Positions 38,341 through 59,589 are shown, counted from the stretch's first letter. The stretch is DNA of 64,000 nucleotides from Sarea resinae (GCA_026026165.1 JAPEUD010000102.1:1-64000); one strand, 5' to 3'. Notes: generated from the sequence alone by a model not told the origin. Numbers and translations: made by a program.

Positions 38341-39945
38341 CTAGCTCGACGAGGCCATCCGACTCGACACACGCATGCGCTTTCCAAACTGCCAGATCAA
38401 AAGGGGTGACGGGATCCCGATACACACGGCCACCAGCGCCAAGACGGTGCTGCCCCAGCCGTAGCCGAGTTTATCATACATATAAGGCGCGAAGAGCGGG
38501 AATCCGGTGCCGGGCAGATTGCGGATCAGCGTGACGGCGGCAATGGCGCTGGCGGCGTAGAGCGGGTAGCAGTCAACGATGTAGTTGTTGACGCTCTGCA
38601 TGATCATGATGACGCCGGCTGAGAAGATGAAGGACCCGATGTTCGGCATGATCCAGTGCAGCCGCGCCTGCGCGCTCCATCCGTACCAGAACAGTCCCGT
38701 CGGCACCAGCAGCGACGCGAGCGCCAGCATCGGCACGCGGAACTCGGGCTCGCCTTTGCCGCCGTTGCGTCGCTTGAGCCGCGTGTAGATGCGGTCGACG
38801 AGCATGCCGCAAAGGAAAGAACCGGCTAGATAGCCTAGCCCCAGAGAGACGTAGTTCAACGAGCCGATTCCGGTCGATTCGTGGTATCGCCCTGTCCAGA
38901 GCGTGGGGAAGGTGGAGTAGGTGAGATACATTAAGCCGTAGACATAGGCGAGATAAATTGCCAGGACCTGCACGATGGGCTGTGTGGCCAGAAGGCGGAG
39001 AGCCCGCAGTAGGTTCCTCCGAAGGAGGGCGCTAAACCCCTCCCTTCCGTCGCGGTCGAAAGGTGTACGGAGCCTAGTATTGCCGGTGGATTTGGCAAGC
39101 TGTCTTCGCCGTTTGTCCAGCAGTATGGGTGGGTAGGTCTCACGGAGAAAGACGGCGGCAAGGAACTGCAAGACCAGGTCGGCGATGGAAACAAAATAGA
39201 AGACCCAGCGCCATGACATGGATTGCGTGATAAACGCCCCGGCTATGGGACCCGTGGACGGCCCAAGCAAGGGAAAGATATTATAGATCGCAACCGCCAC
39301 GCCACGCTCCTCGGCACGGTAGCAGTCGCTGATGATGCCGGAGCCAACCTGCATTTTGTTATTACAACGTCATATCTATCAATTGGATGCGGTGTGACTT
39401 ACCACCAAAGGCGCGCTCCCACCAAATCCACCTAGGAATCGGAACGCTAACATCTCGCTCTTATTGCGTGCGAAGCCGGCCGCGGTGTTGAAGACGAGGT
39501 AGAAGAGGTTTCCCAATCGCAGCACAGGTGCTCGGCCGTACATCTCACTCAAAGGCCCGATCAAAAGAGGCCCGATGCCCATTCCAAGGATGAAGATGGA
39601 AAGAATCAGCTGCGACTCGATGGGTTTGTTGATATGAAGATCCTTTGCAATCTCATCGAGAGCTGGCGCTATCATGGACGATGTGGCGGGTGTGATGAAT
39701 CCGATCGCGCTGACCAGCACTGTCACCGTCAATTTGCGACCGCTCGACCAGTTTTTGGGGTACTCTGCGTCGTCTTCGGCAAAGTCGACGAGGTCTGGGT
39801 CGGTGCCAGCAATGGAGGGGGAAGATGTCGAGCTCTCTCCCAGCGGCGTCTCCGACTTCTCGGCTTCTTCCTTGACGGCCTCTTCGAGCAGCTTTGGTGG
39901 TGGTGATGTGGACTCCATCTCGAAGGGACGATTTCTTGAATCCAT
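38341..39945 (-). CDS. MFS multidrug efflux transporter, DHA1 family
   Basis: DDAEYPKNWS, GPLSEMYGRAPV, FRFLGGFGGSAPL|VGSGIISD, WRWVF, LRETYPP, PEFRVP, YAASAIAA, LGYGWG; one intron ~39352-39400. Confidence 0.92.
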
Positions 39946-41050
39946 GGATGATTCAGACAAGGTCGGGAGATTGTTTGCAAACCTATGTATTACGCACGCA
40001 CATACTCGTAGGACATTGTGCGGGCGTCAAGACCGCAGCGACGAATCCGAAAGATCAGTCGTCAAAGGCTCAACCACATGGCCGAGAATTGACCGATTGA
40101 TCAATCTCCCCTTGTTGGAGGCAGACTGGGCGGAAAGCGGGGGCGGCGCAGAAAATGGGGTTGCAGCAAGCTGGAGGCGAAGAATGAAATGAGGACGGCT
40201 GACGGGAATGCCAAGCTCGATGGCGACATCTGGTGAGAGTTGCGGCGAAGCTGGCGAAGCTGGCCAAGCTGGCCAAGCTGGCCAAGCTGGCAATCCCGAC
40301 AACCCGGACAAAGCCAGACAAGGCCAATCGAATTGATGATGCATGGGCCGTGCTCAAGTCAATCGCAGTACATAGTAGGAAGGCTGTACTGCCATAGCAG
40401 TTGCCATAGCAGGTGGGGTGGAAATTGGGGAGCACGACGAATACGAAAAGGATCGATCATGGATGGATGCACGCGCCGTCAAGGGTTGATCTCCAGATAC
40501 GATCAAGCATTCCCGGAAGGATCAAGGATAACGTGCATGATAGATCCTCCAGCTCTTTGTTCCCGTCAGGTACCCTCAGGTACCCTCAGGTACCTACCTC
40601 AAGTCGAGGAAGGATAAGGTACTCTACCTAAGGTAGGTACCTACTCGGTACCTGAGGGCTCCAAGTGTCGGACAACAAGCCCAAAGGGTAGCGGTCCCTC
40701 AAGGACTTGCCTGTCACTCGTCTACCGGCCATGTTGTATTCCGACACCAAGTAAGAGCTAAGAGGTACTAAGAGTACCAAGTACCTTACCTTAGTACCTA
40801 GGTAGCTTCCGCGTCTAAAGTAGGGTACTAGGTAGGGTGCTCGGGCTACCTAAGATGATGTACGCGGTACGATTGAATACAGCGGCACCCGACCTCCTTA
40901 GGAGGTTGATGCCAACGTAGTACGAAGTATCTTACTGGCGGGGTAAACCCAATGGACGGAAAGGCAGAATAGATGGATTTGGCTGTTGAGACATCTACTC
41001 AAGTAGCTACGGCATCGCCCCCCAAGAGAGGGTGTAGCTTGCCTGCAAAC

Positions 41051-42690
41051 TTATACATCTGTAGCGGGCACATCATCATGCCCAAGCTGGCTCGAGGTCC
41101 ACAGCGGCTCTGGTTCGACGAAGCTTGGATCGCCCACACCGAGAAAGCCCCCCTCTCGAGCCCAGTCGCTGGTCGTCCGGATCTCGAGCGTCTGCCACAC
41201 GTCCACCAATGCCTGTACCAGCTCGGTTTGCAGCTCGCTGTCGTGTCCCGGTGTGGGCGTGACGCGAAGTCTCTCCTGGCCAAAGGGAACAGTAGGGTAG
41301 TTGATCGCCTGAACGTAGATCGACCATCGGGCAAGCAGGAGGTCACTTGCCTTCTTGGCTAGCTCGGCGTCTCCAACGAGAAGAGGCAAGATGTGAGACG
41401 GATTGGGTATGATAGGGATATCCGCCTCCACCAACCTTGCCCGAAGTTGTCGCGTGTGTAGCTGTTGTAAGCGGCGATCTCCCATGTAACCCATCTGATA
41501 CTCAATCGCCGCCTGAGCGCCGGCCATATTCGCAGGTGGCAGCGATGTGGTAAAAATGAATCCAGGGGCGTAAGATCGGATAGTATCAACCAAATCGGCG
41601 TGCCCTGCAATATAGCCACCGACGCCTCCATAAGCCTTTCCAAGAGTCCCTGAGATAATATCGATCCGATCCATGACAGTCCCTTTGATTTGGTGGTTTT
41701 TGTGAGCATCAAAGTCCAAGTGCTCGGCGACGCCACCGCCGTGCGGTCCATACATGCCTACAGCATGAACCTCATCCAGAAATGTAATAGCACCATATCG
41801 TTCTGCCAAATCGCATATTTGTTCGATCGGAGCAACACTCCCGCTCATAGAATAGATAGATTCAAAAGCAACAATCTTTGGATCGGCAGGTGGGAGCGAT
41901 GCTAATTTGGCCTCAAGGTCATTGACGTCGTTGTGGGCAAAGATTATCTTTCTAACCCCAGAGTGTCTGATACCCTGGATCATCGAAGCGTGGTTCATAC
42001 TATCTGAGAGAATAGTGCAATTAGGAAGCTTAGAACCAAGGGTAGCCAGCGTAGCATCGTTTGCTACGTAGCAGGAGGAGAAAACCAAAGCAGCCTCCTT
42101 TCCGTGGAGCTTTGCACAGGTTGACTCGAGATCAAGCGCATGCTGGTTATGACCGGAAATGTTGCGGGTTCCACCAGCACCCGCTCCATAAGTCTGAAGA
42201 GTTTGGACCATTTTTTCGAGGACGCGCGGGTCCCGGCTCATGCCCAGATAGTCGTTAGAGCACCATACCGTGACACGGTCTTCACGATTGAATGAGTGGG
42301 CACGAGGGAATTCGGCCGCGAGACGATTGATGTTGTTGAACCGCCGATATGATTTGTCCTTTTTTTTGGCTTCCAAGTTTGACCAGTAAAAGTTGGCGTA
42401 GTCGAACTTGTTGCTTCGGGTGATCCCAAAGTCCTTAACTGCTTGCGTTGCTGAGGCTTCGAATATTGGTTCACTGGTTAAGCCTGCACTCCGTCAACAA
42501 CAGCCACAAACATATAAGTACAGAACTTACTAGCTCTTGCTTGAGCCCCATCGTTCAGATTGCGAGCTCCGGCTCCCTTTCTAGACGCAAATGCGGACAG
42601 TGTTTCGCCATGCCGCATTGAACATAAGCCATAGCCAACGCATTTGGATCGCAGCTTATTCGTGGAGGGAGAGGAGGCGATCCTGAACAT
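41051..42690 (-). CDS. HEM1: 5-aminolevulinate synthase (HEM1/hemA homologue, likely a second copy), ~530 aa
   Basis: Exon 42690-42531, intron 42530-42484, exon 42483-41051. Motifs: [67 protein letters not shown] (PLP Lys), [17 protein letters not shown]. Confidence 0.95.
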
Positions 42691-43984
42691 CTTGGTGGAA
42701 GGAGATAATTCGTATATGATAGTAGTGCTTCCCTCTAAGGTTCATGGCCAAATATGGGCTGCCGGAGTCTATCGAACATGGTCTAATATATGACCTCAGG
42801 ACTGGGGCTTCGATGGAAGCCCAGCGACTCAATCGAGGTCAGCGGATTCAGTCCCTTGTCTCTTCTCCGTGGCTTACCTAGACATATTATTGCGCTTCAC
42901 TAAAGGATATTGGTTGGAGATGACGGAAGAACTTTCAGGATTGAGACCTCGTAGATGAATATGCACACCGTAGTCCGAAATTAGGTCGCATCAGTGTCCT
43001 GAATACATCCCCTATACCCCATCCACAGGCCCGACTAATGTGCTCCGGCCAGTAAGTCTAAGGCGCTCACCTTCTACTTCCTCTCGTTCGTACTGATGTC
43101 TATGGAGCATGATCAATTTGGCGACATTTCCGTGGTGCATGAAGCGCCGTGCGCACGGGCCTTCCTGACCCGACGGCTGCACTTGCAGAACGGCCCTGCG
43201 GCTGGGCTCGCCTTGCAGATTACTGCGCAGTAGCTGTAGTGGACGGACGGAAGGCCCCGTATTGGGGGTGTTGGGGTTCAGCTCTGATCAGCCCCAATAG
43301 GTACTACATGGTATTCTGGACGGGAGAGCGGGAGGACGGGAACGGGCGCTCATCGAACACGCATCTAGATACTCCGAGCGCTTCGTGGGCAATCGCGGAA
43401 TACGCTCTCCAGCGCTCAAAAGCAGCAGGTAACACAAGTTCATCGCTTTAGGAAACCCGAACCCGTCCCAGGGCGCCAGGTAGGCGGTCCTCCCTCTCGG
43501 TGAACATGCATGTTCCTGTTCGTGATGCCTGATGCAAGGCCTGATGCAAGACCTGTGGAAGATTACAACAAGTCAGGGATTGCGCGTAATGCGGAGGCTG
43601 CTGATGATTACGCCGGCGGGACCAAGATGGTGACATTCTATCGTGCTTCAGCAGAAGAATGGTTGTTTGGGCGGTCAGAGATCGCCAGTGTTCATGCACT
43701 TCGCCGGTGTAAGTCTCCACGTGCCTACCTATCAATTGAACAGGGCTGATCTATGACTGCATGAAAAATCGACTGTGGCTTTTTGTTTGCAGACAAGAAG
43801 ATGCGATCCATAGAAATTCTCAGGCCAATTTCGATCAATAGTCCGATTTTCATGATTCTCTGGCACTCCCGACGGCTATCTTCATATCTTTCATATCTAT
43901 GCCATTTACTCTCGTCTTCCCAGTCCGTATTTACCACAAGGCCTCCATCAAACCCTACCCCAAAACAAAAGTTAGTGAGCAAAA

Positions 43985-45092
43985 ATGCCCGCCTCTCAGA
44001 TTGTTGGCTGCCGCAACCTGAATGCTGGCGTGGACTCATTATCAGATCTCATTCCGGGCTGCTTGCATTCCGGCTTTGGACATCCCCTAACGCGTTCCTG
44101 GCAGAGTGAACGTCAAATTTTGAAAGTAAGTGTGTCGAAATTACGCTGAATATGAATAGCAGATTATTAAGAGTAAGCAACAGTCTTCATTCATCTACCC
44201 AGTCTTCGTGTCCGACATCGACGACGAAGAAGTTTCCATCCCGCTCCTGCCTGACATCCCGCGACTTGGCATACTAAAGCTTGCTCCGCATCTTCAAAAG
44301 CTCGTCGAGATTGGCTTACGATCGGTGATCATCTTCGGTGTACTTAACGATCAAACAGCCAAAGACAGCTACGGGACAGCAGCAGATGACCCAAACGGAC
44401 CGGTTATCAAAGCGATTCGGACTATCCGCCAGCAATTCCCAGAGCTTTACGTCGTGGCCGACGTGTGCCTCTGCGAGTATTCCGATCATGGCCACTGTGG
44501 AATCCTTAACGAAGACGGGAGTATCAACAACCAAGCCTCCGTTGAGCGAATCTCAGATATCGCCATTGCATATGCCCGGGAAGGGTTGCATTGCCTAGCA
44601 CCCTCGGACATGAATGATGGCCGAATTCGAGCTATTAAGCTGAAGCTTCTTGAGGCAGGCATAGCCCACCAAATAACACTGATGGCTTATTCAGCCAAGT
44701 TCAGCAGCTGCCTCTACGGACCCTTTCGGGTGGCAGCAGGCTCGACTCCTTCATTTGGAGACCGTAAAGCCTACCAGCTTCCAAACGAGGGGCGTGGCTT
44801 GGCTCGTCGGGCTCTGGCAAGAGATATCCGAGAAGGCGCCGATATCATCATGGTGAAGCCGGCAGGAAGTTGTCTTGACATTGTGAGAAGTGCCAAGGAG
44901 ATTGGACAGGACCTTCCTGTGGCTGCGTATCAGGTCAGTGGAGAGTACGCGATGATTCATGCTGGAGCTGAAGCGGGCATTTTTGATCTGAAGGCTTCGG
45001 CTTTCGAGTCTATTGAAGCAATTTTGAGAGCTGGCGCGACAATCGTTATTAGCTACTTTACGCCAAACTTTTTGCGCTGGTTGGACGAGTGA
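43985..45092 (+). CDS. HEM2: Delta-aminolevulinate dehydratase / porphobilinogen synthase (Zn-dependent), ~349 aa
   Basis: Exon 43985-44125 (LHSGFGHPLTRSWQSERQ), intron 44126-44183, exon 44184-45092. Motifs: DVCLCEYSDHGHCG, APSDMNDGR, YSAKF..YGPFR, GDRKAYQLP, MVKP, AYQVSGEYAM. Confidence 0.95.
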
Positions 45093-46934
45093 TCGAGATG
45101 GGTTTCCTTCAGGATTCTTGTTTCTCTTTACTAGCCCGCCGAATTTCTAGAATCAAACTACGATGATCGAATTAAATTTCAATGCTCGAATCAAATTTCA
45201 GTGATCGAATCGAACGCTCTACATATACAGATATCTGAGCTTACAAACTCACAGACTGAGCCCGATGATGAGCGATTATATCAATAGTACACAGTAGTCT
45301 CTCTTCTACTCTTCCAACATTGGGTGCGTTTTCCTTAAGGTCCACGTTGCAGCTCGCAACGCTGGACCGCGGAAGGCCAGATCATCGACGCCAGGTAATT
45401 GGCGTAAACTTGGACATAAGCATCTACAACATGATGATTACGATGACGAACTACATCGAATGAGATTTTTTTCGGTCCCACCTAGATGGACTATCTAGAA
45501 ATCATCGCCGGTCGAAACGTCCTTTCACCAGCGGCTTTACGGTATACTATGAAGCCTAGGTAATTGAAAAAGGCGAATCGCATGCACTTGCCTTCTCAAT
45601 CCCGCTTCTTAACCCCCCCGCCCATCCCGTCAATCTCGACATTCAGCTCGATCAAGGCGCAATACGAGTTCTCTGATCTCCACTGCATGTCAGCTGTATT
45701 GCCACATGACAACATGAGATCACTTGAGGCAAATCAGAAAGGGTTTACCTCTCCTACCACCATGTCGGCTTGTCATTCTGGACCAAAGGATTCGGCGCCA
45801 CTGAGACAAAGCGGGAATGCTACAATTCTTCCACTGCCACGTCGTGATTCTAAACAGCACGACTGAGGCAAAGCACCAAGCTCATTATTCTCGTCAGCCG
45901 GCAGAGAGAGGTCTCTTCTAATGGAGGAATCGTCCACATAAAATCAACCTTAAAGCGGCACGAGGCCTTGTTTACGTGCGGCCCCCATGATAGTTGGTGG
46001 CGCGGAGATGTGTGCCTGCATGTTCGGGATATTCAGGACTCAGGGTCGAGGCGGGACTAACCGCAGACCAGCCGCCGCAACCCTTGCAATTCGATACCTG
46101 TCGGGAAACTGCTCCGTTCGGCGTGCGAGGATTACCTAGGTATTGCCAGTGGTGCTTCGATGCCTGGGAAGAGATTGGGAAGAAAGATCATGCGGGTGCC
46201 TTGGATCGGCGTCGGCGCAGCCTGGCCTTCATGTAAGACGGGGAGCTTTTCCGTCTACTCGGATGAGAGACGTTCCATCCAGGCCCCATCCAGACCGTAG
46301 ACCCCGGAAGGTTGGTCGATTATGATAATCCTCTTCCCTAAACCGAAGGTACGTTACTGAGATGTCGACGCGTGGGAATCGTCGGTTTGGTTCTCGGTCC
46401 ACACCCAGCATCTTCTAGGCAAGTCAGGAACAACATGATACGACATGCGCAGCTGGCAAGGTGAGGAGCTCTGCAACCTCAAGCAACTTGCCCAGAGATG
46501 ACGTTGCTGTAGCTGCTGCCGCTGCAAGGCGGATGGATTAGGGCCCGATAAGCTGCAGGACCCTGCAAGCCTCTCAATGCCCTCGATCTCCCCACCCCCC
46601 TCCACATCCGCCTCTGCAGCAGTACAACGCCATCGGCCGAGATACATGTCAGTTACAACTGGTACACGACAAGGATCGTTTGCTTCAAACGCAAGTCAGA
46701 GTCCTTCCGGCCGCCCAAGCATTCAAACAGCACCTCAGAGAGTGGAGGCCGTATAAGATGATGAAAGCAGCCGGCGCCCGAGGCGCCTCGTTCTTTGCTG
46801 AGCGTCCAGTCCCTCTGCGTTGTCTACTCGAAATACTTGCTTCCTCGAAGACCAGTCTACGACTGACCTTGTAGCTTTACATATTGCCTGTATATGGTTC
46901 ACGGCACTGCAAACCCTACAAATTGGGATTCATC

Positions 46935-49052
46935 ATGGCCGAGAGCCTAGGGCCCGAAGAGGGCACTACCTTACCTAATTCCTCCGTGGCCTACTTTGAG
47001 ATTGCTTACCCAAACTCGGGAGGTAAGTATCTATCTAGGTCGGACAACCAGCATGACGTTAACGGAGGAAACATAACAGAATATCTTGCCATCGTCAATT
47101 GGGCATGGAGCAGTCCTCCTAATTCTGAAGCTCGAACGCTGTTCCGATGTGTTGATATTGTTATCACCATGGCTCAGATCGCACCCTCCGACCAATGCGG
47201 AAAATCCGCTGGAATCAAGTGCCCTGCTATTCTGTACTCACTAGACCTTAGCAGCGGTCGCAGACGGAGATTGGACTATGGAGATGATACCAACCCTCTG
47301 GCCTGGCATTTCATGTTCGAAATTCCAGGTGGGCCGTATGGCCAGCTCCATCAATATGCAATGAAGTTGCTATTGCCAACGTCCAGTGGCTATATGTCAC
47401 GAGCGGATTTCCTTGAACGCCGGATGTTTGACAGTCAATTTGCCGCGCGTGTGGCGGGATTCTCGAAGCCCAGACAGTATTTCAAATCTCTTGATCTGAA
47501 GACTGGACTAGAAGTCTTTTTGAAAGCAATTTCCTCATCCGTCGGAGGGATACTGTTGGACCGTAAGTGGAGTCGATCAATCATCTCGTCTCTGCAAGCC
47601 TTGGAGTCCGAGCTCTTCAATAGAATATCTGGCCCATTCCTCGTGAAGGAGCCGATCACCAGAAAGATGCTCGCTCTGGTTGATGGTCGCCGCAGCTTCA
47701 CCGTCTCGGCAGCCGCAGAAGGCATATTTCGAGCAGCTCAAGCGCTTGATATTGGGCTGGTGGTACTTGACAAGCCTGGCCACTGGCTCCAATCTTCAGA
47801 CAATGCATATCTCCGCGATGTCTTCTTGCCAACCGATATTACGGTGGATGAGGACCTCCCACAACGTATCGTGCAGAGCATTCGCGATTATGGCGGGGTA
47901 ATCGATGGTATCACTACCTTCTCTGATCGATATCTTTACTCTACCGCTCGAGCAGCGGAAATCCTAGGCCTTCCAAGTTCGCCGTCCACAGCCTTTGCGA
48001 CTTGCACCGACAAGTATGAGACACGCAAGTTAGACCCCGACACGTGCCAGTTCTTCCGTATCAAGGGACTTAAAGATTTGGAAGCGCTTGCGGAGGACAG
48101 TACAACGGAACTACGCTTCCCTATGATTGTGAAACCGTGCAGTGGGACATCTTCAGAAGGGGTCTTCAAGGTCAATGACTATTCAGAGCTTTGCCTCGCC
48201 GTGGTGAACTTGACTTCCTCGGCAAAGATAACGGATAAGTATGGGTATGACGTGGTATTAGAGAGTTTTATAAGTGGCCCCGAAGTCGACGTCAATTTTG
48301 TTTTGGCAGACGGTGAGATTATCTTCTCCGAAATAAGTGACGACTTTCCCAGTCCAGGAGATTCAGAATCTGCCACCATGTCCGAAACTTTCGTCGATGT
48401 AGCCAACGTCATCCCATCGGCTCTACCAGCACAAGAACTCGACCTTCTCCAGTCAAAGGCCCACAGTATTTTGCGCCGTCTGGGGTTTGCCAATGGGGTT
48501 TTCCATGTGGAAGCCCGGGTCCGTAACTCAGCAATGAATTACATTGGGGCTGACGGCAGCATAGACCTCCATACAGAGACAGCGCACAACAGCAGCAACG
48601 GTACACCAACCGTCTTCTTGGTGGAAATTAATGCCCGCATGCCTGGGAACCAGGAAACAACCGCGATCGAGCGAGCCTACGGCATCGACTACTACCCAAT
48701 ATACATGCTTTCGGCAATGGGTGAAACGGATCGACTAAAAAAGATGGCAGCGCCATTTCGGAACGGTCCGCAATACTGGTGTCAAGTACTCCGCTTCCAT
48801 GGATTTCATGGAGGCACATGGAACTCGGACGATGCGTGCAAGGACTTGATCTCGCGCCGGCCAGAACTCCAAGAGAACATTTCTCATCATCGATGCCTGT
48901 TCAAAAGGGGTCAGGTGGTACCAGCCCCTACTATCAACGTTGTCGTCTTTGTCGCCTACTTCGTCCTATTCTCTCGAAGGAGCCGAGATCATCTTCTCCA
49001 GGTGGCAGAGGCTGTCCGGAGAGATTTTCATTATGACGTGATATCTTATTGA
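46935..49052 (+). CDS. Fungal ATP-grasp ligase (FsqD-like secondary-metabolism type)
   Basis: VVLDKPGHWLQ, IDGITTFSD, CTDKYETR, FPMIVKPCSGTSSEGVFKV, ESFISGPEVDVN, EISDDFPSPGD, GVFHVEAR, LVEINARMPG; possible in-frame intron 47023-47079. Confidence 0.85.
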   Translation: MAESLGPEEGTTLPNSSVAYFEIAYPNSGGKYLSRSDNQHDVNGGNITEYLAIVNWAWSSPPNSEARTLFRCVDIVITMAQIAPSDQCGKSAGIKCPAILYSLDLSSGRRRRLDYGDDTNPLAWHFMFEIPGGPYGQLHQYAMKLLLPTSSGYMSRADFLERRMFDSQFAARVAGFSKPRQYFKSLDLKTGLEVFLKAISSSVGGILLDRKWSRSIISSLQALESELFNRISGPFLVKEPITRKMLALVDGRRSFTVSAAAEGIFRAAQALDIGLVVLDKPGHWLQSSDNAYLRDVFLPTDITVDEDLPQRIVQSIRDYGGVIDGITTFSDRYLYSTARAAEILGLPSSPSTAFATCTDKYETRKLDPDTCQFFRIKGLKDLEALAEDSTTELRFPMIVKPCSGTSSEGVFKVNDYSELCLAVVNLTSSAKITDKYGYDVVLESFISGPEVDVNFVLADGEIIFSEISDDFPSPGDSESATMSETFVDVANVIPSALPAQELDLLQSKAHSILRRLGFANGVFHVEARVRNSAMNYIGADGSIDLHTETAHNSSNGTPTVFLVEINARMPGNQETTAIERAYGIDYYPIYMLSAMGETDRLKKMAAPFRNGPQYWCQVLRFHGFHGGTWNSDDACKDLISRRPELQENISHHRCLFKRGQVVPAPTINVVVFVAYFVLFSRRSRDHLLQVAEAVRRDFHYDVISY

Positions 49053-49419
49053 TTTCAAGACAGGGTTGCTAGTGCACAAATATTTGCGTCTTGACATAGC
49101 GGACATGCTGTCCATGATATTGTGTTTTTCATACCTACTTGCTATCCATCTACATACCTATTGAAATCCATATCTAAACTTCAACCAAAACTTCGGCTGC
49201 TTAAAGGCCGATCTTGGCCGTAGAGCGAGAGACCTTTGCCTTTGACATTACGGCTGCAAACCTTTTGCTGTATCGAGAGATTGATCAAGAAATTGATTTG
49301 CTAGCCCAGTCATTCGTTTTTCAGCATGGCTCTGTTAAAAGCCCGTGGAACTACTGATTGACGATCATGTCTATTCAAAGCCGGAGATCTCGGTGAAAGG
49401 GAAGCTGAACGGCCGGTGC

Positions 49420-50724
49420 TCAGGTGCTTGACGTGGTACTTGGAGCAGGGAGACCTTCTGGGGTTTTGACCAGTGCCAACAAGGCACCGCCGCCTAACTC
49501 CAAGATCCGCTTAGCAACAATGATACCCACTGCCTCGGCATCAACATCAGTCTTGACCAAGCCTGAGTGATGGGCCCGGATCTCAACCCCTCCTTGAGGA
49601 TGTAGCAATGTACCAATCAGATGAAGCACACCGGCTTGCCCATCAGTAGTAACGCTTGAATCCACAGATCCGCTGTGCAGAGAGCTCAGAACTGCAATTG
49701 GTGCGGAACAGCCACCTTGTAGATATCGCAATAGAGAACGCTCGGCGAGACATCGAACACGCGTTGGCCAGTGATCGATGGGTTTGATGAGCTCGAGTGT
49801 CTTCGTGTCGTTGGAGCGGATTTCGATCCCCAGAGATCCCTGTCCCACCGCATGTAGAAATGTGGGTGCTGAGAGACGCGCGGTGATACGGTGCTCGAGG
49901 TTCAAGCGTTCCAGGCCGGAAGTGGCGACGACGATCGCAGTGTACGGCGAGTCGCTGGCGTCCAGCTTCGCGATTCGAGAGTCCCTGAAGAACTTGTGTC
50001 AATGACGCAATGTGAGACAGCAAGGCACTTACACATTACCACGGCATTCCTGGACCAACAAGTGAGGACAGAAGTGCTTCAATTGCGCGGTGCGGCGAAC
50101 AGAGCTAGTTCCAACGACGGATCCGGAAGGCAGATCCTCCAAAGAGCGATATGGAAGGCCGGTCTTCACCACCAGTGCGTCTGTGGGATCGTTGCGGTGT
50201 GGAAAGACGCCAATAGCGCAGCCTTCTGGGAGGGCGGTCGGGACATCCTTTAGGCTGTGCACAATAATATCGATATCTCCCGCCAGCAGTCGTTCTTCGA
50301 TCTCCTTGGTCCACAGGCTTTTGGAGACGTCGGCCGAACTCTTGCCTGGCTTTGCGGCAAACTGTAGAAATGGAGTCGTCTTGTCCACGTCTCCTTGAAC
50401 AGCGTGCGTTGAGATGGGAAAGGAGAATCCATGATGCACCTTGAAGAGGGCTGCCGCTACGGACGAGGCCTGGATGAGGGCCATCTTCGACTTGCGGCTA
50501 CCGATGCGGAGAGATCCAAAGAGGCCGCTGGCTGGGCATTGCGTTGGGGGATGCAAGGCCTGATCGGATTGCAGTTCGACGTATTGCTTCATTGCATCCA
50601 TGTGCGAGAGAGCCGTCTCTGTCAACTCATGTTGCTCTGCGGCGCCGAGCGGATAGACGCCCGAGGCCGGTCTGTCATCACGCCCGTCGCCATCGCCATT
50701 GCCATTGCCATCTGGTTCAGCCAT
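49420..50724 (-). CDS. HEM3: Porphobilinogen deaminase / hydroxymethylbilane synthase (divergent)
   Basis: IGSRKSKMALIQ, LWTKEIE, IVHSLKDVPT (catalytic Asp), GTSSVRR, RGNV|DSRIAKLD, AVGQGSLGIE, ERSLLRYLQGGCSAP (cofactor Cys); intron ~50032-49985. Confidence 0.93.
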
Positions 50725-51055
50725 GTGACAATTGTGGAGGTGATGATTTGAGAAAGGTGTGTGTTGTGTGTTGTGTGTTGTGTTGTGCGTGGAGGGAGAA
50801 ATCCAGATCACGTCAAGCGACGCAATCAGGGAAGCGTCTTAGGAGACGTTCGACGATAAATCCATGGATGTCGGAAACACTGCCCTGGGAGGGACTTCCG
50901 ACCCCGACCCCCGCCCCACTCCGCGCCCTTCTTATCTACCTTAAGCTTACCTCGTATTTTAGACCTCCCGGCCACCACATCTAACCGCTTGAATCGATCT
51001 TGCTGCTCTTAGTCTCTCGCCTCTACAATTTTCTACGATGCCCCGGCTATGAACC

Positions 51056-52317
51056 ATGGGACAGTTCATCTATCTCCGGTTGAAAGGTGGGCCGCTCTCC
51101 AATGTGCTCGAGTAGCATAATTGATAACCCTTTTCTTAGGGATCGTCTATTTTGCCAGCTGCCGTACAGATGACGACGAGACGGTACTAGAACTTCTCAC
51201 TCGAAGGTTAGCTGCCGCATCTCCAGAATCTTCATTCATTGCTCTACATTCGAGCACTTCGCTTCAGTGGCACCAGCAAGACGACGTGGTCAACCCGTTT
51301 GGTGATGACTGAGAATCCTGCGTAGCTGCCGTGTGGATCGTCGATCTGGATTACGACATACTTGAACTTCGCAAAAAGGATGAACGTCGAAGGATTGCGC
51401 TTGGCCGAGTTCGCCAAGGTCTTCCAAGCTCTATTGCCGACCTCGAGCTTCATGATCCCCTCCCGTCGAGAAGACACGTGATGCACCTATGGCTATCGAA
51501 CCCAACCTGGAATCCAAAATGCGACGCAACAGCGAGACAAAAGGCGTTTACAGCTAGAATGCTAGAAGATTTCTCACACCAATGGAGGCATATATCGCGA
51601 AGTCAATACAATACGCACACCTTTCAAAAACTTGCCAATGCAATACTTCGCATTGCCACACTCGACTTTAGCGTGGTTGAGGTGGCTTCATCACGGTCAT
51701 CGACTCCCGGAGTGCTGGTGGAATTGAAAGACCTACCCTTTTGGGGGCCTCCTCAAGGACAAATCTTTCGCTGTGGTCGCGTATACGTCGTTCTTTTACA
51801 ACATCTTGAACGCGTCCTCCCTACTATCAATGGTGACCTTAGATCACGAATTTTGACTCATTCTTCGCATCCAACCAGAGACGATATGCAAAGCATTACG
51901 TATCTTGTCCTAACGATTCGAGAAATCTTGCTGTTAAAGACCGACACTGCCGACACTGCCAACACTGTCGAGGACAGGCTCTTGACCTACACCAACCCAG
52001 TGGCTTTCCTTGATGGGATTCATTCTCCGTCGGAGAAGGCATTGGAGTACTTGCTTATGGCAAATCCAACCTGCTCTCATTCTTCCATCCATGAGCTGCC
52101 CCTAGAGATACAAGACTTGATACTGAGTGCACTTTCGATAGGCCCTATCGAAGCAGCTCGAGTCGGTTGCATACTTGATCTTGGATCCTCTTTCGAATGG
52201 AAAACGGGCGGTCATGCTATCGAGAGGTAACCCAGATTTTCTGCACGGTCAATAGACAGCCCCGTCGAATCTCAGATCTGGCTTGATGGTTCCTTTACTG
52301 GGCTGGCATACGAGTAG
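51056..52317 (+). pseudogene. Disrupted fungal hypothetical gene with an F-box-like motif near the C-terminus
   Basis: ORFs 51121-51312 and 51331-52230 share a frame but are split by TGA 51310-51312. Coding-like sequence continues past TAA 52228-52230 (SPVESQIWLDGSFTGLAYE*). LPLEIQDLIL motif. Confidence 0.6.
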
Positions 52318-53775: not shown

Positions 53776-54541
53776 ATTTCTGCGAGCTGGTCACGAGGCA
53801 TAGAATTTCTACAGTTAGAGATTGATAGAATAGAGGCATGGTCGTTATGATAGACAACTGAGCAGAGCTAGAACAATTATGAATATTTCTCCCCAAGGCC
53901 ATTTAGATTTGCAGTGAAAAGGGGCTCTCTCTCGAAGTTGAATTGGCTACCTATATTTTAAGACGAGAAAGCTGTCGGAGCTCAAGGCATCAGTAGTGCC
54001 GCAATGGTCTGCGTTAAGGAAGGTTGTCTGCCTAAGAGCGATAGAGCCAAGCGAGCGGTGTAACAGAAGGCGCCCTGCCTCTCTGCCCGTATCAAGAGCT
54101 GTCGAGAAAAATCTATTACATTACATGCATCGAGAAATGGGTTTCGGTGGTTACTCGATAGCAATTCGTTTTTTCGGCGACCTCCGAAGCGCCGGCTTGC
54201 AAGACAAACATCAGGAACACGACCGCTATCGAAAAACAAAACATCGAGTGTTAGTAAGGACAACCATTCGTGGACCAGCAATTGGTCCCGCTCTAGCTGA
54301 GCGGATGTTGTGGCACATTGTGGAGAAGTGGGGAAGGAGATTCATCTCACGTGGGGAAAATCGATCGTAAGACCGCCTGACGGAGACCGTTAGAAAGCGT
54401 GTCGATCGGGGTCGAGGCCGTGATAAGAGAGCAACTTGACTACATCCAAATCCATTGATTATAGCACCTCTGAAAGTTCCCAAAAAGCGAGTTGTGTATC
54501 ATCTTCTCTGATCTCAGAAGCCGTTTGATTCAGGAGCAAAG

Positions 54542-56039
54542 ATGCTCTACACCCACGCTACCATCATCACGGTCGACAAGTCTCGGAGGATCATAGACGA
54601 CGGCGCCATCCAGGTCGAGTACAACCGGATTACAGACATTGGCAAGACCGAGACCTTGAAAGGAAAATATCCAGACGAAGAAGAATGTGACTTGACCGGT
54701 CGGATCATTGTCCCAGGCCTTGTATCAACTCACATACATACGGCTCAGACGTTGATTCGAGGCGCGGCCGATGATCTCGAACTGGTCTCATGGCTCTGCG
54801 AGAGGATCTGGGTGCTGCAAGGCAACTTTACTCCTGAGGATGGCTATGCTGCAGCACGTTTGAGCATCGGAGAAATGTTGAAGTCGGGAACAACGTGTTT
54901 CCTCGAGAGCATGGTAATCTCTCCCATCCCTTATCTTCCCGGTATCGAAGGATGAGGGTCTAACTCGCGATAGTTTGCCGACCGATATGGCTTTGATGGA
55001 CTATGTCGCGCAGTGGAAGAAAGCGGCATCCGGGGATGTCTCGGAAAGATTGTCATGGACGTTGCCAAGTACGCAAAAGATGACGGCTGGGCGATGCATC
55101 CCGGACTGGTTGAAGAAGGACAGAACTCATTGCTAGGAACTGTAAAGATGTGGGAAAAGTGGAACGGGAAAGCCAACGATCGGATCCGAGTCTGGTTTGG
55201 TGCAAGGACGCCGGGAGGGTATGTGTCTGTGGTCTCACACCTGTCTCATCTCGCTGATGGTCCGCAGAGTATCGGACGAACTCTACAGGGAAATGACGGC
55301 CATCTCCCGCAAAAGTTCCATCCCTATCACGATGCACTGCGCCGAAGTCCAAGCCGACCGCGACTTCTTCGCTTCCGTTTCGCACACGCCCATGTCATAT
55401 TGCGAGTCGGTCGGTCTACTTTCTCCCTCGACCGTTCTCGTCCATATGGTGCACCTCGACAACTCTGACATCAGAACGTTGTCCTCAACTGGCACTCACG
55501 TCGCGCACTGTCCCACATCCAACGCAAAATTGGCATCGGGGATCTGTCGAGTGCCCGAGCTCCAAAAAGCGGGTATCAATATAGGATTAGGCACGGATGG
55601 CGCGCCATGCAATAACACCTGTGATCTGTTCCAAGAGATGAAACTCGCCGCCATTATCCACAAGAGCATCTCTCATGATCCCACTGCAGTACCGGCGGAA
55701 TCTGTACTCGAAATGGCCACTATCAACGGAGCAAAAGCTCTGGGCTTAGACGATAGCATTGGCAGTTTGGAGGTCGGCAAAAAGGCGGACTTTGTCGCGA
55801 TCGATTTGAGGGCAATACATTTGCAACCCTGGTTCAGTGCGGTCAGTGCTGTGGTATACACGGCAACAGGAAGAGATGTCGACATTGTTGTGATAGACGG
55901 AAAGATGGTTGTAAAGGGTGGGCAGCTACTGACTCTGAATGAAGCGGACATTGTTACAGAGGCGAAGTGGAGAAGTAATAATATTCTACAGCGAGCAGGA
56001 CTACGAGAGAAAATAAAAGATCGGTGGCCTACTGTGTGA
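54542..56039 (+). CDS. Metal-dependent amidohydrolase, SsnA / MTA-SAH deaminase / AtzA-like
   Basis: PGLVSTHIH (HxH), EMLKSGTT, MHCAE, LVHMVHL, HCPTSNAKLASG, LGTDG, MATINGAKALG, GSLEVGKKAD; two introns. Confidence 0.92.
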
Positions 56040-57291
56040 ATTATCTCCGCTTCTTAAGTGTAAGAGCTAGGGTTTTAGCAGTTAATCAGTCGTTTTATTT
56101 TATTGTTTCTGTGAGGCGCGCTGCTATATAGTAGGCAAATAGGCATGGCGCGGATGAGCCGGGTTATAGTAGTCTTTTCAGCGCACGTAGGAGCAGGTTT
56201 GCCTATTTACTAGACCTTATATGTAGCTTCGCCAACTTATTTTTCCTCCTTTGCCTAGGATTCTGTTAGATCCGAACGTTCTCGTTCGGCAGACAACCAT
56301 TCTGCTTTAAGAGATTCTAACTGGGATTGAGAAGCATTCAGAGTTTGTGCCCTGTGCTGATCCTTATCCAGGGTTGTCTGCGTGGTACAGGTCGCTTAGG
56401 ATGAGAAACTCCCTGCCTGTGCCCGTGCTAATACTCGTTTTCTCGGCGGCTGAGATCTGTCGATTCCGGACATATCATTGTTTGAGATCTCTAACGCCTT
56501 ACATTTTGCAGAGCCTTCACTACCGGACACTGACTGTGCCTTTTGGCATTCTCGAATAACATATCGAACACATTCTGTTCTAATCGCAGAGATTGTTTCG
56601 CCTCGAAGCTGCAACTCTAGTGTGACTTTCGCTTCAACAAGACCAAATGCGAATGGGGCCATTGCATTTTAAAAGAGGTAAATCCTTTTGATCTTTCCAC
56701 AAGTTCAAAAAATGAGGTTAGACAGGGAAAATTGGGCGAGCGACGAGATCCGTTCCGTCTTGAGTTGTCTGTTCCTCGCGATCCTAATCAGCACCTCCCA
56801 CCCAGGCGAACTGCATATTGCCAGATTGTCGATATCGAATCATTGTTACCTGATCGGTCTTCAGCTCTGTTGCATTGAAGGTGCTGTGCGACCTCGCCAT
56901 TGTCGACGACATACAACTCCTCTGTCCTCGTCCTTGTTGTTGTCCTCATGTAGGACATCTCATGTACCACTTCATGGCTGGTGGAATAATCCTGATGAGC
57001 CCAATGCTGCCGAGTGTGACAGTTACGCAACTGACGAATGAGTCGGTACTCTTCACGCCGGACGCCGGGCGCCGAGCCACTCGGGAGGAAACAAGTCGGC
57101 GTCCAAACGAGCCAATCCCACGATATCCATGACGAGTATCTAAGGAATGAGAAACAGGTAATCAACGGCTGCGCACTCTATCGCTCCCCGCTTGCAGTCG
57201 GACGTTGCTTTACACTATTTCAGTCGAAGAGCTTCAAGAAAGAAATATCACGAATCTCTCAACTCGATATGAGGTTTGTGTTCCACTGAAT

Positions 57292-58309
57292 ATGTCGTCA
57301 AAGATAGATGTGCATCATCATTACTACCCTCCGTTTTCCGTTGAAGGCAAGTTTCCAATCCAATCCAGTCTGCTCCGATAAGAATCGATGGATGACCCTG
57401 GAAACAGCCATCAAGCGTGCCGGTGGCGACCCTTCGGGATGGTCCATTCCGTCGTGGACGCTTGATGCCGACAAGGCTATCAACAACGTCGTAGGGACCG
57501 CAACGACCATCCTGTCGCTGACGGCACCTGGTGCCCCTATCGAGAAAGACACGGCTGATGCCGCGCGCCTTGCACGTCAGGCCAACGAATACGCCGCGAA
57601 ATTGCGTGATGACGAGCCGACCAAGTATGGGTTCTTTGCCGCTTTGCCGTCAATCGTTGACACCAAGGAATCCCTCGAGGAGATCGCGTACGCGCTAGAC
57701 GTGCTCAAAGCGGACGGCGTCACCCTCTTCACGCGCTACGGTGAAGACAGTTACTATTTGGGCCACCCAAGCTTCCGACCCATCTGGGCCGAGCTGAACA
57801 GCCGGAAAGCCGTCGTCTTTGTCCATCCGACCCATGTCGACTTGAGCCTCGTCAACGAGCACTTGCCTCAACCGATGCTCGATTATCCCCACGAGACATG
57901 CCGAACGGCCATGGATCTCATTGTCAACAACAATATCAAAACCTACCCGGATTGCAAGATCATCCTCTCGCATGCCGGGGGAACCTTACCCTACCTCATC
58001 TACCGCGCCGCAGCCATGCTGCCATATACGCCGTGCGACATTGGAAAGTCGACCCAAGAGATTGTCGAGGAAGGGCGCTCATTTTATTTTGACACTGCCA
58101 TCTCCAGTAATAAGTATACGCTGGAGTTGCTCTTTGCGTTTGCAAAGCCCGGCCATATCCTGTTCGGATCTGACTTCCCAAACGCGCCGACGGAATCCAT
58201 TGAATATTTTACTTCGACGCTAGAGGAGCTCTGGGGTGATCACAGAGAAATCGAAAGGGATGCGGCGTTGGCTATTTTGCCGCGTTTGAGACAAAAGTTG
58301 ACGGGGTGA
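57292..58309 (+). CDS. Amidohydrolase_2-family decarboxylase (6-methylsalicylate/orsellinate decarboxylase-like)
   Basis: [14 protein letters not shown] intron 57347-57407, [57 protein letters not shown]. Confidence 0.88.
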
Positions 58310-58804
58310 TAATATATCTAATGGCTCAGTGATACGATTCTCTGATGAAACTAGATGCCAATGACGCAGAAAGTATTGAAAGAAGTAAGCTGTTCATGAA
58401 AGGAACGACAAAAGAAAAGTAGAGTGAAATGATAATATAACGGTCGAACTCTGATGCGAAAATCAACCCGGGGAAGAAACGTATTTACACGACGTTAGCT
58501 AATAAACCCTGGATTAGCTCGTAATGTAGACGATCTATCGGAGAGGCTCTGACTGACTCGCTCCTATGACCTTAGTGGTGCTCGTGATAATTGGCTTGGG
58601 CTCGTTGTTAGAAGAGGCTACATGGAACAGTTTGGAAGCTTGAGAGCGATCATGAAGTTGTCTGAGCGAATAGGCGACTACTCGTGCAAGAGCGGCGACG
58701 CGACAGCAATGCTCACTATTTCACCACCTTTCGAGGATCAATTCCGTTTCCCATCTGTCGGCATCGTACTTGCCTCTGCGACAGCTCCCTCTGACCGCTT
58801 CTCC

Positions 58805-59589
58805 TCACAAGCTTGCGAGCTGCCTGTTAACAGCATCCTTGTCCCAGATTCTATCTCCCCCTTCTCCTAGACCCGCCGGATCCATATTTGAGCAGGATGT
58901 TTCGAACCAGTCCATCTTTTCTATCTGATCTTGGGTCGGGCTTTGTGCTCTGTAGCTATCTCGCAACTCATTCCACCCATCTACACCACCCACATCCTCC
59001 GCACATGGATGCCCTTCCCCATCCCGACAGATGAATCCTGAAGTGCTGATATTCCTGACTTCGCCGGTGTCTTCTCGGCCCACAATTGTAATACAGTGAT
59101 CCCAGCGGTCCCCAAAATCGTACTCATACTCGATAGTGGCGTCTGCGAATGATCTGTCCTCGAAAAGCTCAGACAGTCGTGTTTGTAAAGCATGCTTTTC
59201 GGGGGTAGTCTCTAGTCCCAACGTGGCATTCATGTTGGCGCGGTGGATCAGATCGTTGCCACTGTCGTCGCTGATCCTAAGAGCGTTCTCGGCGGATTGT
59301 AGAAAGAGCGACGGCCGTAGGAGTCGTTCTGTCCACCAGCGCTTCGGTGAGGTTCGAGGAACTTGAAGGCATAGAGATGAGTGGTGGCCCAATTAAAAGC
59401 GATTTGTATGGCGCGGTGCAGCTCATCAAATGTAGCTGTTGGTGGACAAGACAATGTACGACTGATGGCGGGGTCTTCGATCTCTCCAGGACATAGGTCG
59501 ATCTTCAAGATATAGTTTCGAGGTAGCAAGTTTGGGGGCCGTGGGGGTCCGAAGACCCTCTTTCCGTTGATATGCGTCGCCGCGGACAT
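58805..59589 (-). pseudogene. MM3350-like / pRiA4b ORF3-like domain gene with an apparent 1-nt frameshift near 59280
   Basis: N-half RTLSCPPTATFDELHRAIQIAFNWATTHLYAF and C-half YEYDFGDRWDHCI..GHPCAEDVGGVDGW lie in different frames with no clear intron between them. Confidence 0.6.

Follow-up and report, generated by a model that had tools for sequence, protein, structure and literature searches.

Fungal heme genes are, as a rule, dispersed, single-copy and engaged in housekeeping. Why, then, do three of them lie side by side with an amide ligase and a transporter in Sarea resinae? The question arises from a 64,000-nucleotide stretch of this fungus (GCA_026026165.1, JAPEUD010000102.1:1-64000), which is referred to here as the window. 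Its source genome is a metagenome bin. The features that the argument needs are the following:

38341..39945, minus strand: MFS transporter; two exons, one short intron near 39350-39400; starts MDSRNRP.
41051..42690, minus strand: 5-aminolevulinate synthase (ALAS), 530 aa (P0004); exon 1 42690-42529, intron 42528-42482, exon 2 42481-41051.
42691..43984, no strand: divergent intergenic region of ~1.3 kb between the ALAS and PBG synthase starts, as given by the gene coordinates.
43985..45092, plus strand: porphobilinogen (PBG) synthase (ALAD), ~349 aa; exon 1 43985-44125, intron 44126-44183, exon 2 to 45092.
46935..49052, plus strand: ATP-grasp ligase, 686 aa (P0124); one 57-nt intron near 47022-47078.
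49420..50724, minus strand: PBG deaminase/hydroxymethylbilane (HMB) synthase, 418 aa (P0166); exon 1 50724-50033, intron 50032-49985, exon 2 49984-49420.
59895-62228: gene with a fungal transcription-factor domain, 9 kb from the cluster.

The five genes, namely the MFS pump, ALAS, PBG synthase, ATP-grasp ligase and PBG deaminase, are intact and fill 38341-50724, from the final base of the MFS stop codon to the first base of the deaminase ATG. A preliminary description of this DNA had placed five adjacent intact genes on these strands and at these coordinates, and Pfam, NCBIfam and the spliced models bear it out. The models spliced from the DNA give 530, 686 and 418 residues for the ALAS, the ligase and the deaminase, which match the lengths of the deposited records, and no reading frame is broken in any of the three. 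In the protein search, the ALAS and the deaminase were 100% identical to their deposited records and the ligase 97%, the query ORF of the latter having run through an intron. The ALAS, PBG synthase and HMB synthase all exceed the curated NCBIfam equivalog cut-offs, and that enzymes for three consecutive pathway steps lie together within 10 kb is not due to chance. When sequencing runs were searched with the locus, one DNA run, possibly that from which the sequence derives, and no RNA run was found among the matches listed.

The ALAS is enzymatically regular. Aminotran_1_2 is found on ORF 41051-42493(-) with an E of 2e-69 (Pfam), and the protein reaches 604 bits with TIGR01821 against a cut-off of 338.6 (NCBIfam). 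It matches the yeast Hem1 structures with an E of 4e-176, and the GTLGK lysine motif and the glycine-rich motifs align; the equivalog model, PLP lysine and glycine-rich motifs that define the enzyme family are all present. What it lacks are the marks of a housekeeping HEM1 orthologue, that is, grouping by taxonomy, a long Cys-Pro N-terminus and a single copy. A second, canonical ALAS (P0076, 615 aa) is present on a 529-kb contig under the same organism name. It is 74% identical to the window copy, and its N-terminus begins MDAILRQS...MCPFL, as is typical of canonical ALAS. As the genome is a metagenome bin, the two copies could in principle stem from two organisms. The 74% identity to fungal HEM1, together with the passing of the equivalog model, argues against the ‘ALA-analogue’ synthase that had been suggested earlier.

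In a careful tree of 32 rows, a branch with support of 100/99 separates four cluster-linked ALAS proteins (the window copy and three others) from the 28 housekeeping ALAS, and the housekeeping portion tracks taxonomy. The identical four-row clade was recovered by FastTree from 120 ALAS rows with a support of 100, and the AU test rejected a grouping of the window ALAS with the Sarea housekeeping ALAS (p 1e-6). The cluster copies sit on branches of 1.4-1.7, compared with a median of 0.2, and such lengths carry a risk of long-branch attraction. The N-termini differ as well. The two N-termini of cluster ALAS that are complete contain no Cys-Pro (CP) motif, whereas 66/66 full-length housekeeping proteins have one or more. 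The short N-terminal region of the window ALAS, devoid of this motif, is still basic and presequence-like.

The PBG synthase likewise carries what its family calls for. The ALAD domain lies on ORF 44160-45092(+) with an E of 8e-113 (Pfam), exon 2 alone reaches 331 bits with NF006762 against a cut-off of 297 (NCBIfam), and the match to yeast ALAD has an E of 1e-114. The Zn-type Cys triad DVCLCEYSDHGHCG and the active-site lysines of AKFS and VKP align to the yeast enzyme; the equivalog score, both active-site lysines and the fungal/animal-type zinc triad are thus all in place. An alternative acceptor for the intron is present at 44159. The protein is 67-73% identical to 12 fungal ALADs, which are 80-94% alike among themselves, and this gap points to a putative paralogue of HEM2. 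A metagenome scan with the PBG synthase gave at least 80 loci, of which 12 were fungal (L001-L012). Their ALADs are unlinked: neither ALAS, ATP-grasp nor deaminase was found on any of the 12 contigs, in 1.6-21 kb of DNA per locus. The shortest of these loci, from 1.6 kb upward, carry little weight. The remaining linked matches among the loci listed are bacterial hemC-hemB pairs, and the metagenome matches listed include no relative of the cluster-type ALAD.

The third enzyme, the deaminase, shows Porphobil_deam and Porphobil_deamC on ORF 49420-50838(-) (Pfam) and 273.8 bits with TIGR00212 against a cut-off of 164 (NCBIfam). Compared with human HMBS, it retains the RKS, HSLKD, SSVRR, RGN, GQG and GGCS motifs, and RKS, HSLKD, SSVRR, RGN and GGCS are invariant in the deaminase alignment. 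Along with the equivalog score, the cofactor cysteine, catalytic Asp and substrate-binding Arg of the HMB synthase family are present. It does not, however, group with the 320-360-aa fungal deaminases as a housekeeping HEM3 does. It belongs to a separate clade of seven rows (SH-aLRT 100), apart from 77 other rows. The clade members are 374-441 aa long, apart from two fragmentary rows of 202 and 225 aa, while the other 77 are mostly 320-360 aa. In the protein search, identity falls from 61-71% to at most 55%, the latter with housekeeping proteins. An N-terminal extension of ~75 aa with a PPxxCPA motif is conserved in P0166-P0169. The AF2 model of the long deaminase has a pLDDT of 52.7, too low for use. 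We take the three heme genes for additional, diverged copies that are separate from the housekeeping ones. The second ALAS copy, the trees and the AU test establish this for the ALAS; for the deaminase and the PBG synthase it is strongly indicated. The duplicated, non-housekeeping early heme genes of the preliminary description are supported to this extent.

In the ligase, ATPgrasp_N (PF18130) and ATP-grasp_4 (PF13535) are found on ORF 46875-49052(+) above the Pfam cut-offs, and the intron is backed by orthologue alignment; no NCBIfam model was passed. The protein consists of an N-terminal domain (about residues 1-220) and an L-amino-acid-ligase-like catalytic module (221-686). Its AF2 model (pLDDT 89.8) superimposes on 3vot_B with a Z of 35.6 and an rmsd of 2.9 over 387 aligned residues, on RizA with a Z of 30.3 and on BacD with a Z of 29.5, and Foldseek matches it to ATP-grasp structures with an E of 2e-26. 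As modelled, residues 221-686 have the L-amino-acid-ligase fold. The ligase shares this ATP-grasp fold with the bacterial L-amino acid ligases BL00235 (3vot), RizA (4wd3) and BacD/YwfE (3vmm), which are without its extra 220-residue N-terminal domain, and its identity to L-amino acid ligases of known structure is only 17-21%. Because of the fold, the Pfam domains, and the E-x-N metal motif and conserved lysines, which are retained, the expected chemistry is the formation of an acyl phosphate and then of an amide. In full-length searches, no PDB match covers residues 1-220, as the catalytic module fills the match lists. The E-64 ATP-grasp enzyme Cp1B, considered as a relative, was absent from the PDB sequence search with the ligase; according to the paper on Cp1B, no sequence identity can be detected between it and the other ATP-grasp enzymes that have been characterised. 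A predicted complex of the ligase with deaminase residues 1-300 scored 0.04, which gives no answer and is evidence neither way.

The nearest whole-length neighbours of the ligase in the Atlas are clusters named after the animal carnosine synthase CARNS1. The name ‘carnosine synthase 1’ is assigned automatically and provides leads only; the TM scores, both given without alignment or E-value, are 0.82 for a fungal cluster and, over residues 7-681, 0.63 for a chordate one. Close relatives are few. Orthologue-level identity (53-75%) is seen in 3/38 ATP-grasp matches, the next best being 44%, and among the 150 representatives listed only one 50%-identity representative is more than 50% identical to the ligase. 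As for its first ~120 residues, the Talaromyces stipitatus orthologue is the only one of the same 150 whose alignment includes the beginning (query residue 18); for seven others the alignment sets in at residues 42-92, and for all remaining ones at residue 100 or beyond. Judged from these sequence matches, the window-type ATP-grasp subfamily appears to be rare and to occur almost only with cluster-type heme genes.

The ATP-grasp linkage, when sought elsewhere, recurs in another fungal class. T. stipitatus, which belongs to a different class from S. resinae, has EED11429 (ALAS), EED11430 (ATP-grasp) and EED11431 (deaminase) as consecutive accessions on one 96,371-bp contig, with no PBG synthase between the ALAS and the ATP-grasp. 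The adjacency of ALAS, ATP-grasp and deaminase is thereby shown to be conserved in T. stipitatus. Two ENA proteins, an ALAS (P0022) and an ATP-grasp (P0126), come from contigs of equal size (30,899) and probably lie on one contig. For the long-form deaminases of Scytalidium lignicola and Geopyxis carbonaria, no cluster-type ALAS or ATP-grasp orthologue was found among the matches listed; thus, either the set is not always complete or its partners were missed by the searches.

The five-gene locus falls outside the core-enzyme definition of a fungal secondary-metabolite cluster. As had been described earlier, the window holds no PKS or NRPS core, and a terpene core is likewise absent: the 124 ORFs of at least 110 aa outside the five genes include no PKS, NRPS, terpene synthase or DMATS core. 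Neither these nor the 73 ORFs of 50-109 aa around the cluster contain UROS, UROD or another heme gene, and there is no ABC domain in the 64 kb. The pump, a putative DHA1 transporter, shows MFS_1 on both exons of ORF 38341-40026(-), with E values of 6e-27 and 6e-16 (Pfam). The divergent intergenic region is presumed to be a shared promoter of the ALAS and the PBG synthase. No promoter words at k = 8-10 were common to four upstream regions beyond chance; seven 7-mers are common to the four, a figure without a control.

A heme-gene cluster in a fungus is, however, not without precedent. Zhang, Rokas and Slot described the VLB ‘porphyrin’ cluster of Microsporum gypseum/Nannizzia gypsea in 2012, with a product not known, and in their survey of 128 fungal genomes heme-gene linkage is reported from one species only and called unique (PMC3408471). 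VLB resembles the Sarea cluster in its extra PBG deaminase (VLB-3), PBG synthase (VLB-5) and ALAS (VLB-6/9) near a transporter, and the order of VLB-3 deaminase, VLB-4 (to which the main text assigns no function), VLB-5 PBG synthase, VLB-6 ALAS and VLB-7 pump is comparable to deaminase, ATP-grasp, PBG synthase, ALAS and pump in Sarea. The NRPS, ABC pump, Zn2Cys6 regulator and two ALAS genes are features of VLB only; Sarea has the ALAS, PBG synthase, deaminase and transporter, but no NRPS in 64 kb, no ABC pump and no in-cluster Zn2Cys6 regulator, and has the ATP-grasp ligase and the MFS pump instead. The Sarea cluster had been put forward as a candidate for novelty. Since VLB was reported in 2012 (PMC3408471), the Sarea cluster is to be taken as a variant of an already reported, uncharacterised cluster type. 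No ATP-grasp, cluster-type ALAS or deaminase of N. gypsea was found among the matches listed, and no N. gypsea ATP-grasp that could be VLB-4 is in the top 10 representatives (Teratosphaeria, Glonium, Rutstroemia and Chaetomidium among them). Literature searches on the five-gene set, the T. stipitatus locus tags and follow-ups of the 2012 paper, as well as on fungal carnosine-synthase-like enzymes and fungal uroporphyrin metabolites, returned nothing relevant beyond PMC3408471.

Bacterial comparisons are looser. The alaremycin cluster of Streptomyces sp. A012304 is also specialised, with an ALAS-family enzyme, an MFS exporter and a tie to porphyrin metabolism (PMC12006855, PMC9356726). It had been likened to the Sarea locus as a set of ALAS homologue, PBG synthase and MFS; its genes, however, are almA/almB/almC/almE, with an N-acetyltransferase and an oxidoreductase but no PBG synthase, deaminase or ATP-grasp, and the analogy to an antimetabolite cluster is thus weaker than was claimed. 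AlmA condenses L-serine and not glycine, whereas the window enzyme is, by its score, a true ALAS. In Streptomyces, the C5N (2-amino-3-hydroxycyclopentenone) cassette combines an ALAS paralogue with ATP-dependent amide-forming enzymes, which are ANL-type ligases and not ATP-grasp; to our knowledge it has neither PBG synthase nor deaminase. Tolyporphin clusters, like the putative one of Sarea, serve a specialised tetrapyrrole and have their own early hem copies, but they are bacterial, their product is known, genes for later pathway steps and for tailoring are included, and they hold no ATP-grasp that we know of. Such clusters are described from cyanobacteria (PMC10459692, PMC8401325).

The best explanation is an accessory cluster, spread across fungal classes, in which diverged early tetrapyrrole enzymes, an ATP-grasp amide ligase and MFS export would yield a specialised pyrrole-based product, a reading that we hold to be evenly poised between right and wrong. 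The cluster ALAS would condense glycine and succinyl-CoA to ALA, probably free of heme feedback; the PBG synthase would join two ALA into porphobilinogen, and the long-form deaminase would convert this to hydroxymethylbilane. As the cluster is without a uroporphyrinogen-III synthase, the bilane, if no other enzyme used it, would self-close to uroporphyrinogen I. The ATP-grasp enzyme may act on one pathway intermediate, turning a carboxylate into an acyl phosphate and then linking it through an amide bond to an amine or amino acid, and the MFS pump would export the product. Beyond the three canonical reactions, we infer the chemistry, the substrate of the ligase, the loss of heme feedback and the export. 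We know of no ATP-grasp enzyme in any known tetrapyrrole pathway, which counts against this explanation. So do the lack of common promoter words, the long branches of the cluster copies, the metagenome-bin origin of the two ALAS and the long-form deaminases for which no cluster-type ALAS or ATP-grasp was among the matches listed. A narrower form of the explanation, tentative and on the doubtful side, is that the product in two or more fungal classes is a specialised oligopyrrole, or a type-I porphyrin, whose carboxylate side chains are capped with amino acids by the carnosine-synthase-like ATP-grasp. Here, the long-form HMB synthase would hand the unstable bilane, or porphobilinogen, to the ligase, and the exported product could be a pigment, photosensitiser or metal ligand.

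Other readings explain parts of the evidence. The paralogues could be a conditionally expressed, feedback-insensitive second entry to heme or siroheme, used for example under high hemoprotein demand, with housekeeping UROS continuing the pathway and the ligase and pump as unrelated neighbours. That the three enzymes are canonical in their catalytic residues and score above the equivalog cut-offs, that the cluster ALAS is free of the CP motifs of its housekeeping counterparts and that the ligase is the sole tailoring enzyme adjoining the heme genes all agree with this. Yet it is unlikely: the T. stipitatus orthologue of the ligase also sits between ALAS and deaminase, and one probably accompanies ALAS on the ENA contig; the subfamily is apparently rare and seen almost only beside these paralogues; and the conserved 75-aa extension gained by the deaminase would be needless for such a role. 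A plain chance linkage of the ordinary HEM1, HEM2 and HEM3 in the Sarea lineage is extremely improbable. The enzymes are indeed intact and canonical, but a canonical 615-aa ALAS exists under the same organism name and each of the three proteins stands apart from its housekeeping counterparts, the ALAS by the AU test as well.

The ligase may instead join ALA to an amino acid and so give a pseudo-dipeptide or antimetabolite, the PBG synthase and deaminase being self-protection or compensation copies, an altered form of the antimetabolite model of the preliminary description. Carnosine synthase follows an omega-amino acid logic, in which histidine is coupled to beta-alanine or GABA, and ALA belongs to the omega-amino acids as well; fungal clusters commonly contain an additional copy of the target for self-resistance. 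The nearest Atlas neighbours in structure and features, the animal enzyme included, also bear the carnosine synthase name, but these automatic names are leads only. Two successive downstream enzymes as resistance copies would be unusual, T. stipitatus keeps the deaminase and not the PBG synthase beside the ligase, and the alaremycin precedent is without PBG synthase. This reading is accordingly held to be quite improbable.

If the accessory cluster makes a modified porphyrin or oligopyrrole, this would open a new class of fungal natural product, with fluorescent pigments, photosensitisers and metal ligands as candidate roles, and would be the first known role of an ATP-grasp enzyme in tetrapyrrole tailoring. 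With the capped oligopyrrole, if true, fungi would have their first dedicated pathway to a tetrapyrrole natural product, by a type of tetrapyrrole tailoring without a known example in any organism. A diverged heme-gene block with an amide ligase also points to chemistry that lies outside the scope of cluster finders based on core enzymes. T. stipitatus ATCC 10500 is culturable and sequenced, and the question is thus directly testable; the outcome would bear on the dermatophyte cluster of 2012 too. Separately, a natural ALAS without Cys-Pro motifs is of interest for the overproduction of ALA or heme in fungal cell factories.

The five genes constitute a real and intact accessory early-tetrapyrrole cluster that carries a rare ATP-grasp ligase and is kept across fungal classes. 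The sequence of the window is fungal; it has spliced genes and a G+C content of about 52%. The stop-to-stop frames of the 38.3-50.9 kb region were scanned with Pfam, and the following genes were found:

38341-39945 (-), MFS transporter
41051-42690 (-), ALAS-type aminotransferase
43985-45092 (+), porphobilinogen (PBG) synthase
46935-49052 (+), ATP-grasp protein
49420-50724 (-), PBG deaminase

With splice sites taken from the DNA, the models of the ALA synthase (ALAS), ATP-grasp protein and deaminase came to 530, 686 and 418 aa, which are the lengths of the deposited proteins P0004, P0124 and P0166 matched in protein searches. Thus, the five adjacent genes and their strands stand as first described. 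All three pathway enzymes score above their NCBIfam equivalog cut-offs (ALAS, 604 bits against 338.6; PBG synthase, 331 against 297; deaminase, 273.8 against 164), and catalytic motifs are retained in alignments with yeast Hem1, yeast ALAD and human HMBS, respectively. The three canonical reactions predicted from these sequences are, therefore, well supported.

The preliminary description took the ALAS to be an extra, non-housekeeping copy, and this was upheld by a second protein, by two trees and by a topology test. A second ALAS named Sarea resinae (P0076; 615 aa, on a 529-kb contig) is 74% identical to the window ALAS, whose own source name is 'MAG: ... [Sarea resinae]'. P0076 has the canonical fungal N-terminus with Cys-Pro motifs, while that of the window protein is shorter, basic and devoid of them. 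Among the 120 ALAS listed, at least one such motif is present in all 66 complete long N-termini and at least two in 64 of these; both complete cluster-type copies have none. In a FastTree phylogeny of all 120 rows, the window copy forms a four-row clade with the JGI, T. stipitatus and ENA proteins (support 100). An IQ-TREE analysis of 32 rows (88 were left out) separated these four from 28 named housekeeping proteins by a 100/99 branch, with a tool warning of long branches on two cluster-type copies. The housekeeping part tracks taxonomy, the Sarea copy being placed with Sarcosagium and Chaenotheca; the window copy, in keeping with the gene-tree check proposed earlier, lies outside it. The AU test rejected (p 1e-6) a topology in which the window ALAS and the JGI protein paired with it join the Sarea housekeeping copy, the group having been chosen after the tree was seen. 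It is highly improbable that these are housekeeping heme genes that merely happen to be linked.

The deaminase also belongs to a separate group. Five full-length matches of 374-441 aa are 61-71% identical to the window protein, and another two, both of them fragments, stand at 62-64%; for deaminases of the typical length (320-360 aa), the figure is at most 55%. A tree was built from the 84 rows that remained after 36 shorter ones were removed, namely the rows of at least 300 aa and the two fragments; the window protein falls inside a seven-row clade with an SH-aLRT of 100. The long forms share a conserved N-terminal extension of about 75 residues ending in the motif PPxxCPA, and all catalytic residues are invariant among those aligned. 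The Cys-Pro of this motif is invariant in all five long forms of the alignment (A3), at residues ~60-70 of P0166 (window 50500-50724, -). The long deaminases carry in their extension a Cys-Pro of the kind that housekeeping ALAS carries and cluster ALAS has lost; a site for sensing heme or porphyrin may have been transferred in this way from one enzyme to the other.

For the PBG synthase, relatives were sought in metagenome contigs. The 12 fungal proteins among the matches listed are 80-94% identical to one another and 67-73% identical to the window protein, a distance consistent with a diverged paralogue, though not in itself proof of a second copy. None of these 12 loci had an ALAS, ATP-grasp or deaminase gene nearby. 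These unlinked fungal loci contrast with the bacterial contigs (L014-L080), many of which show the usual hemC-hemB neighbourhood, the deaminase gene lying 1-3 kb upstream of that for PBG synthase. In the window, the gap between PBG synthase and ATP-grasp genes (45093-46934, 1.8 kb) is long for an intergenic region, and no Pfam family was found in the 20 small ORFs scanned there, one ORF overlapping the ATP-grasp start being left out.

The AF2 model of the ligase is confident (pLDDT 89.8). Its residues 221-686 superpose on the L-amino acid ligase 3vot_B (Z 35.6, rmsd 2.9, 387 aligned) and also match RizA (Z 30.3) and BacD (Z 29.5); 3vot is detected by sequence as well (phmmer E 8e-15), and the structure search gave a Foldseek E of 2e-26. 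Alignment of 37 family members shows that they retain the conserved lysines as well as the E-x-N motif. For the N-terminal domain of about 220 residues, the structure and sequence match lists contain no PDB match. Neighbours in the ESM Atlas include Ascomycota clusters, one automatically named 'carnosine synthase 1' (TM 0.82), and a carnosine synthase cluster from chordates (TM 0.63 across residues 7-681); this model-based neighbourhood may serve as a lead. The family has 241 representatives at E <=1e-30. Among those listed, the T. stipitatus protein is the sole one above 50% identity and alone aligns from the query start (residue 18), the others starting at residues 42-92 (seven) or at residue 100 or beyond.

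Among 38 ATP-grasp matches, the orthologue-level ones besides the protein itself were from JGI (75%), ENA (54%) and T. stipitatus (53%), identity dropping to 44% in the next match. In T. stipitatus ATCC 10500, a cluster-type ALAS (EED11429), the ATP-grasp protein (EED11430, TSTA_080410) and a long deaminase (EED11431) lie on one 96,371-bp contig, and their consecutive accessions indicate adjacency. Linkage of the ATP-grasp gene outside Sarea is thereby supported for this trio. Since Sarea belongs to Sareomycetes and Talaromyces to Eurotiomycetes, the trio has been kept across classes. For the ENA ALAS and the ENA ATP-grasp protein alike, the longest contig is given as 30,899 bp, which suggests that they share it; the contigs of the three JGI proteins differ in length, and no linkage can be derived. 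Against a strict five-gene unit, the consecutive accessions leave no room for a PBG synthase between ALAS and ATP-grasp genes in T. stipitatus, and the long deaminases of Scytalidium and Geopyxis had no matching ALAS or ATP-grasp protein among the matches listed.

Pfam scans covered 124 of the 150 window ORFs of at least 110 aa (the other 26 lie inside the cluster region, whose main frames had their own scan). The smaller ORFs (50-109 aa) number 151, of which 73 were scanned, the remainder being 52 located at 22-26.6 kb and 26 that overlap larger ORFs. No PKS, NRPS or terpene core was found in these ORFs, in agreement with the preliminary description, nor was any further heme gene, including uroporphyrinogen-III synthase (UROS). 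Thus, the encoded pathway ends at hydroxymethylbilane (HMB).

We give about an even chance to a second ALA > PBG > HMB pathway followed by ATP-grasp amide formation and export, in which the chemistry past the canonical reactions is conjectural. Cys-Pro motifs have an established role in animal ALAS, and the cluster ALAS, being without them, would no longer be subject to control by heme. The long deaminase would yield free HMB, which without UROS cyclises to uroporphyrinogen I. The ATP-grasp enzyme might convert a carboxylate into an amide, be it that of ALA, PBG, the bilane or the porphyrinogen, and the MFS pump would export the product. The same ALAS could instead serve a feedback-free heme booster, with the ATP-grasp enzyme, accompanied by ALAS and deaminase in Talaromyces too, and the pump as unrelated neighbours; this is unlikely. 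Somewhat less likely still is an ALA pseudo-dipeptide, with the extra PBG synthase and deaminase as protective enzyme copies. The alaremycin analogy drawn earlier is weakened, the cluster being given as almA/B/C/E without a PBG synthase (PMC12006855; PMC9356726).

An early-tetrapyrrole cluster of this kind has been reported once before and never characterised, and the ATP-grasp version is a variant of it. In the 2012 paper, the Microsporum gypseum VLB cluster comprises a PBG deaminase, a PBG synthase and two ALAS genes, and an NRPS, a Zn2Cys6 regulator and an ABC pump also belong to it; it has no known product and is described as unique in 128 genomes (PMC3408471). Its order of deaminase, VLB-4 (unnamed in that text), PBG synthase, ALAS and pump parallels that of the window (PMC3408471). 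No follow-up of the VLB cluster and no report of an ATP-grasp form was found in the literature.

Other features of the surroundings are as follows:

20567-21616 (-), TauD-family Fe/2-oxoglutarate dioxygenase, upstream of the cluster
31292-33022 (-), FMO/Baeyer-Villiger-type flavin monooxygenase, upstream of the cluster
51313-52227 (+), 305-aa frame without a Pfam family, adjoining the deaminase
54512-56036 (+), Amidohydro_1 gene
57308-58306 (+), Amidohydro_2 gene
58808-59604 (-), PRiA4_ORF3-domain gene
59895-62228 (-), fungal transcription-factor-domain gene
62929-64000 (+), second MFS gene, running past the window end

There is also a low-complexity flanking ORF of 549 aa. The C-terminal LPLEIQDLILSAL of the 305-aa frame resembles what we take to be an F-box-like motif. 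No tie to the cluster was seen for the flanking ORFs or for the TauD, FMO, amidohydrolase, transcription-factor or second MFS genes; the two amidohydrolase, PRiA4_ORF3, transcription-factor-domain and MFS genes at 54512-64000 form a possible second small cluster. An unbroken 1050-aa frame at 26331-29480 (-) bears a CHAT (caspase-like) domain at its C-terminal end (E 2e-32). Ordinary conserved genes (Pho88, XPA/Rad14, striatin and PIG-P) occupy 8549-17520, and thus the cluster adjoins the core genome rather than forming an isolated island.
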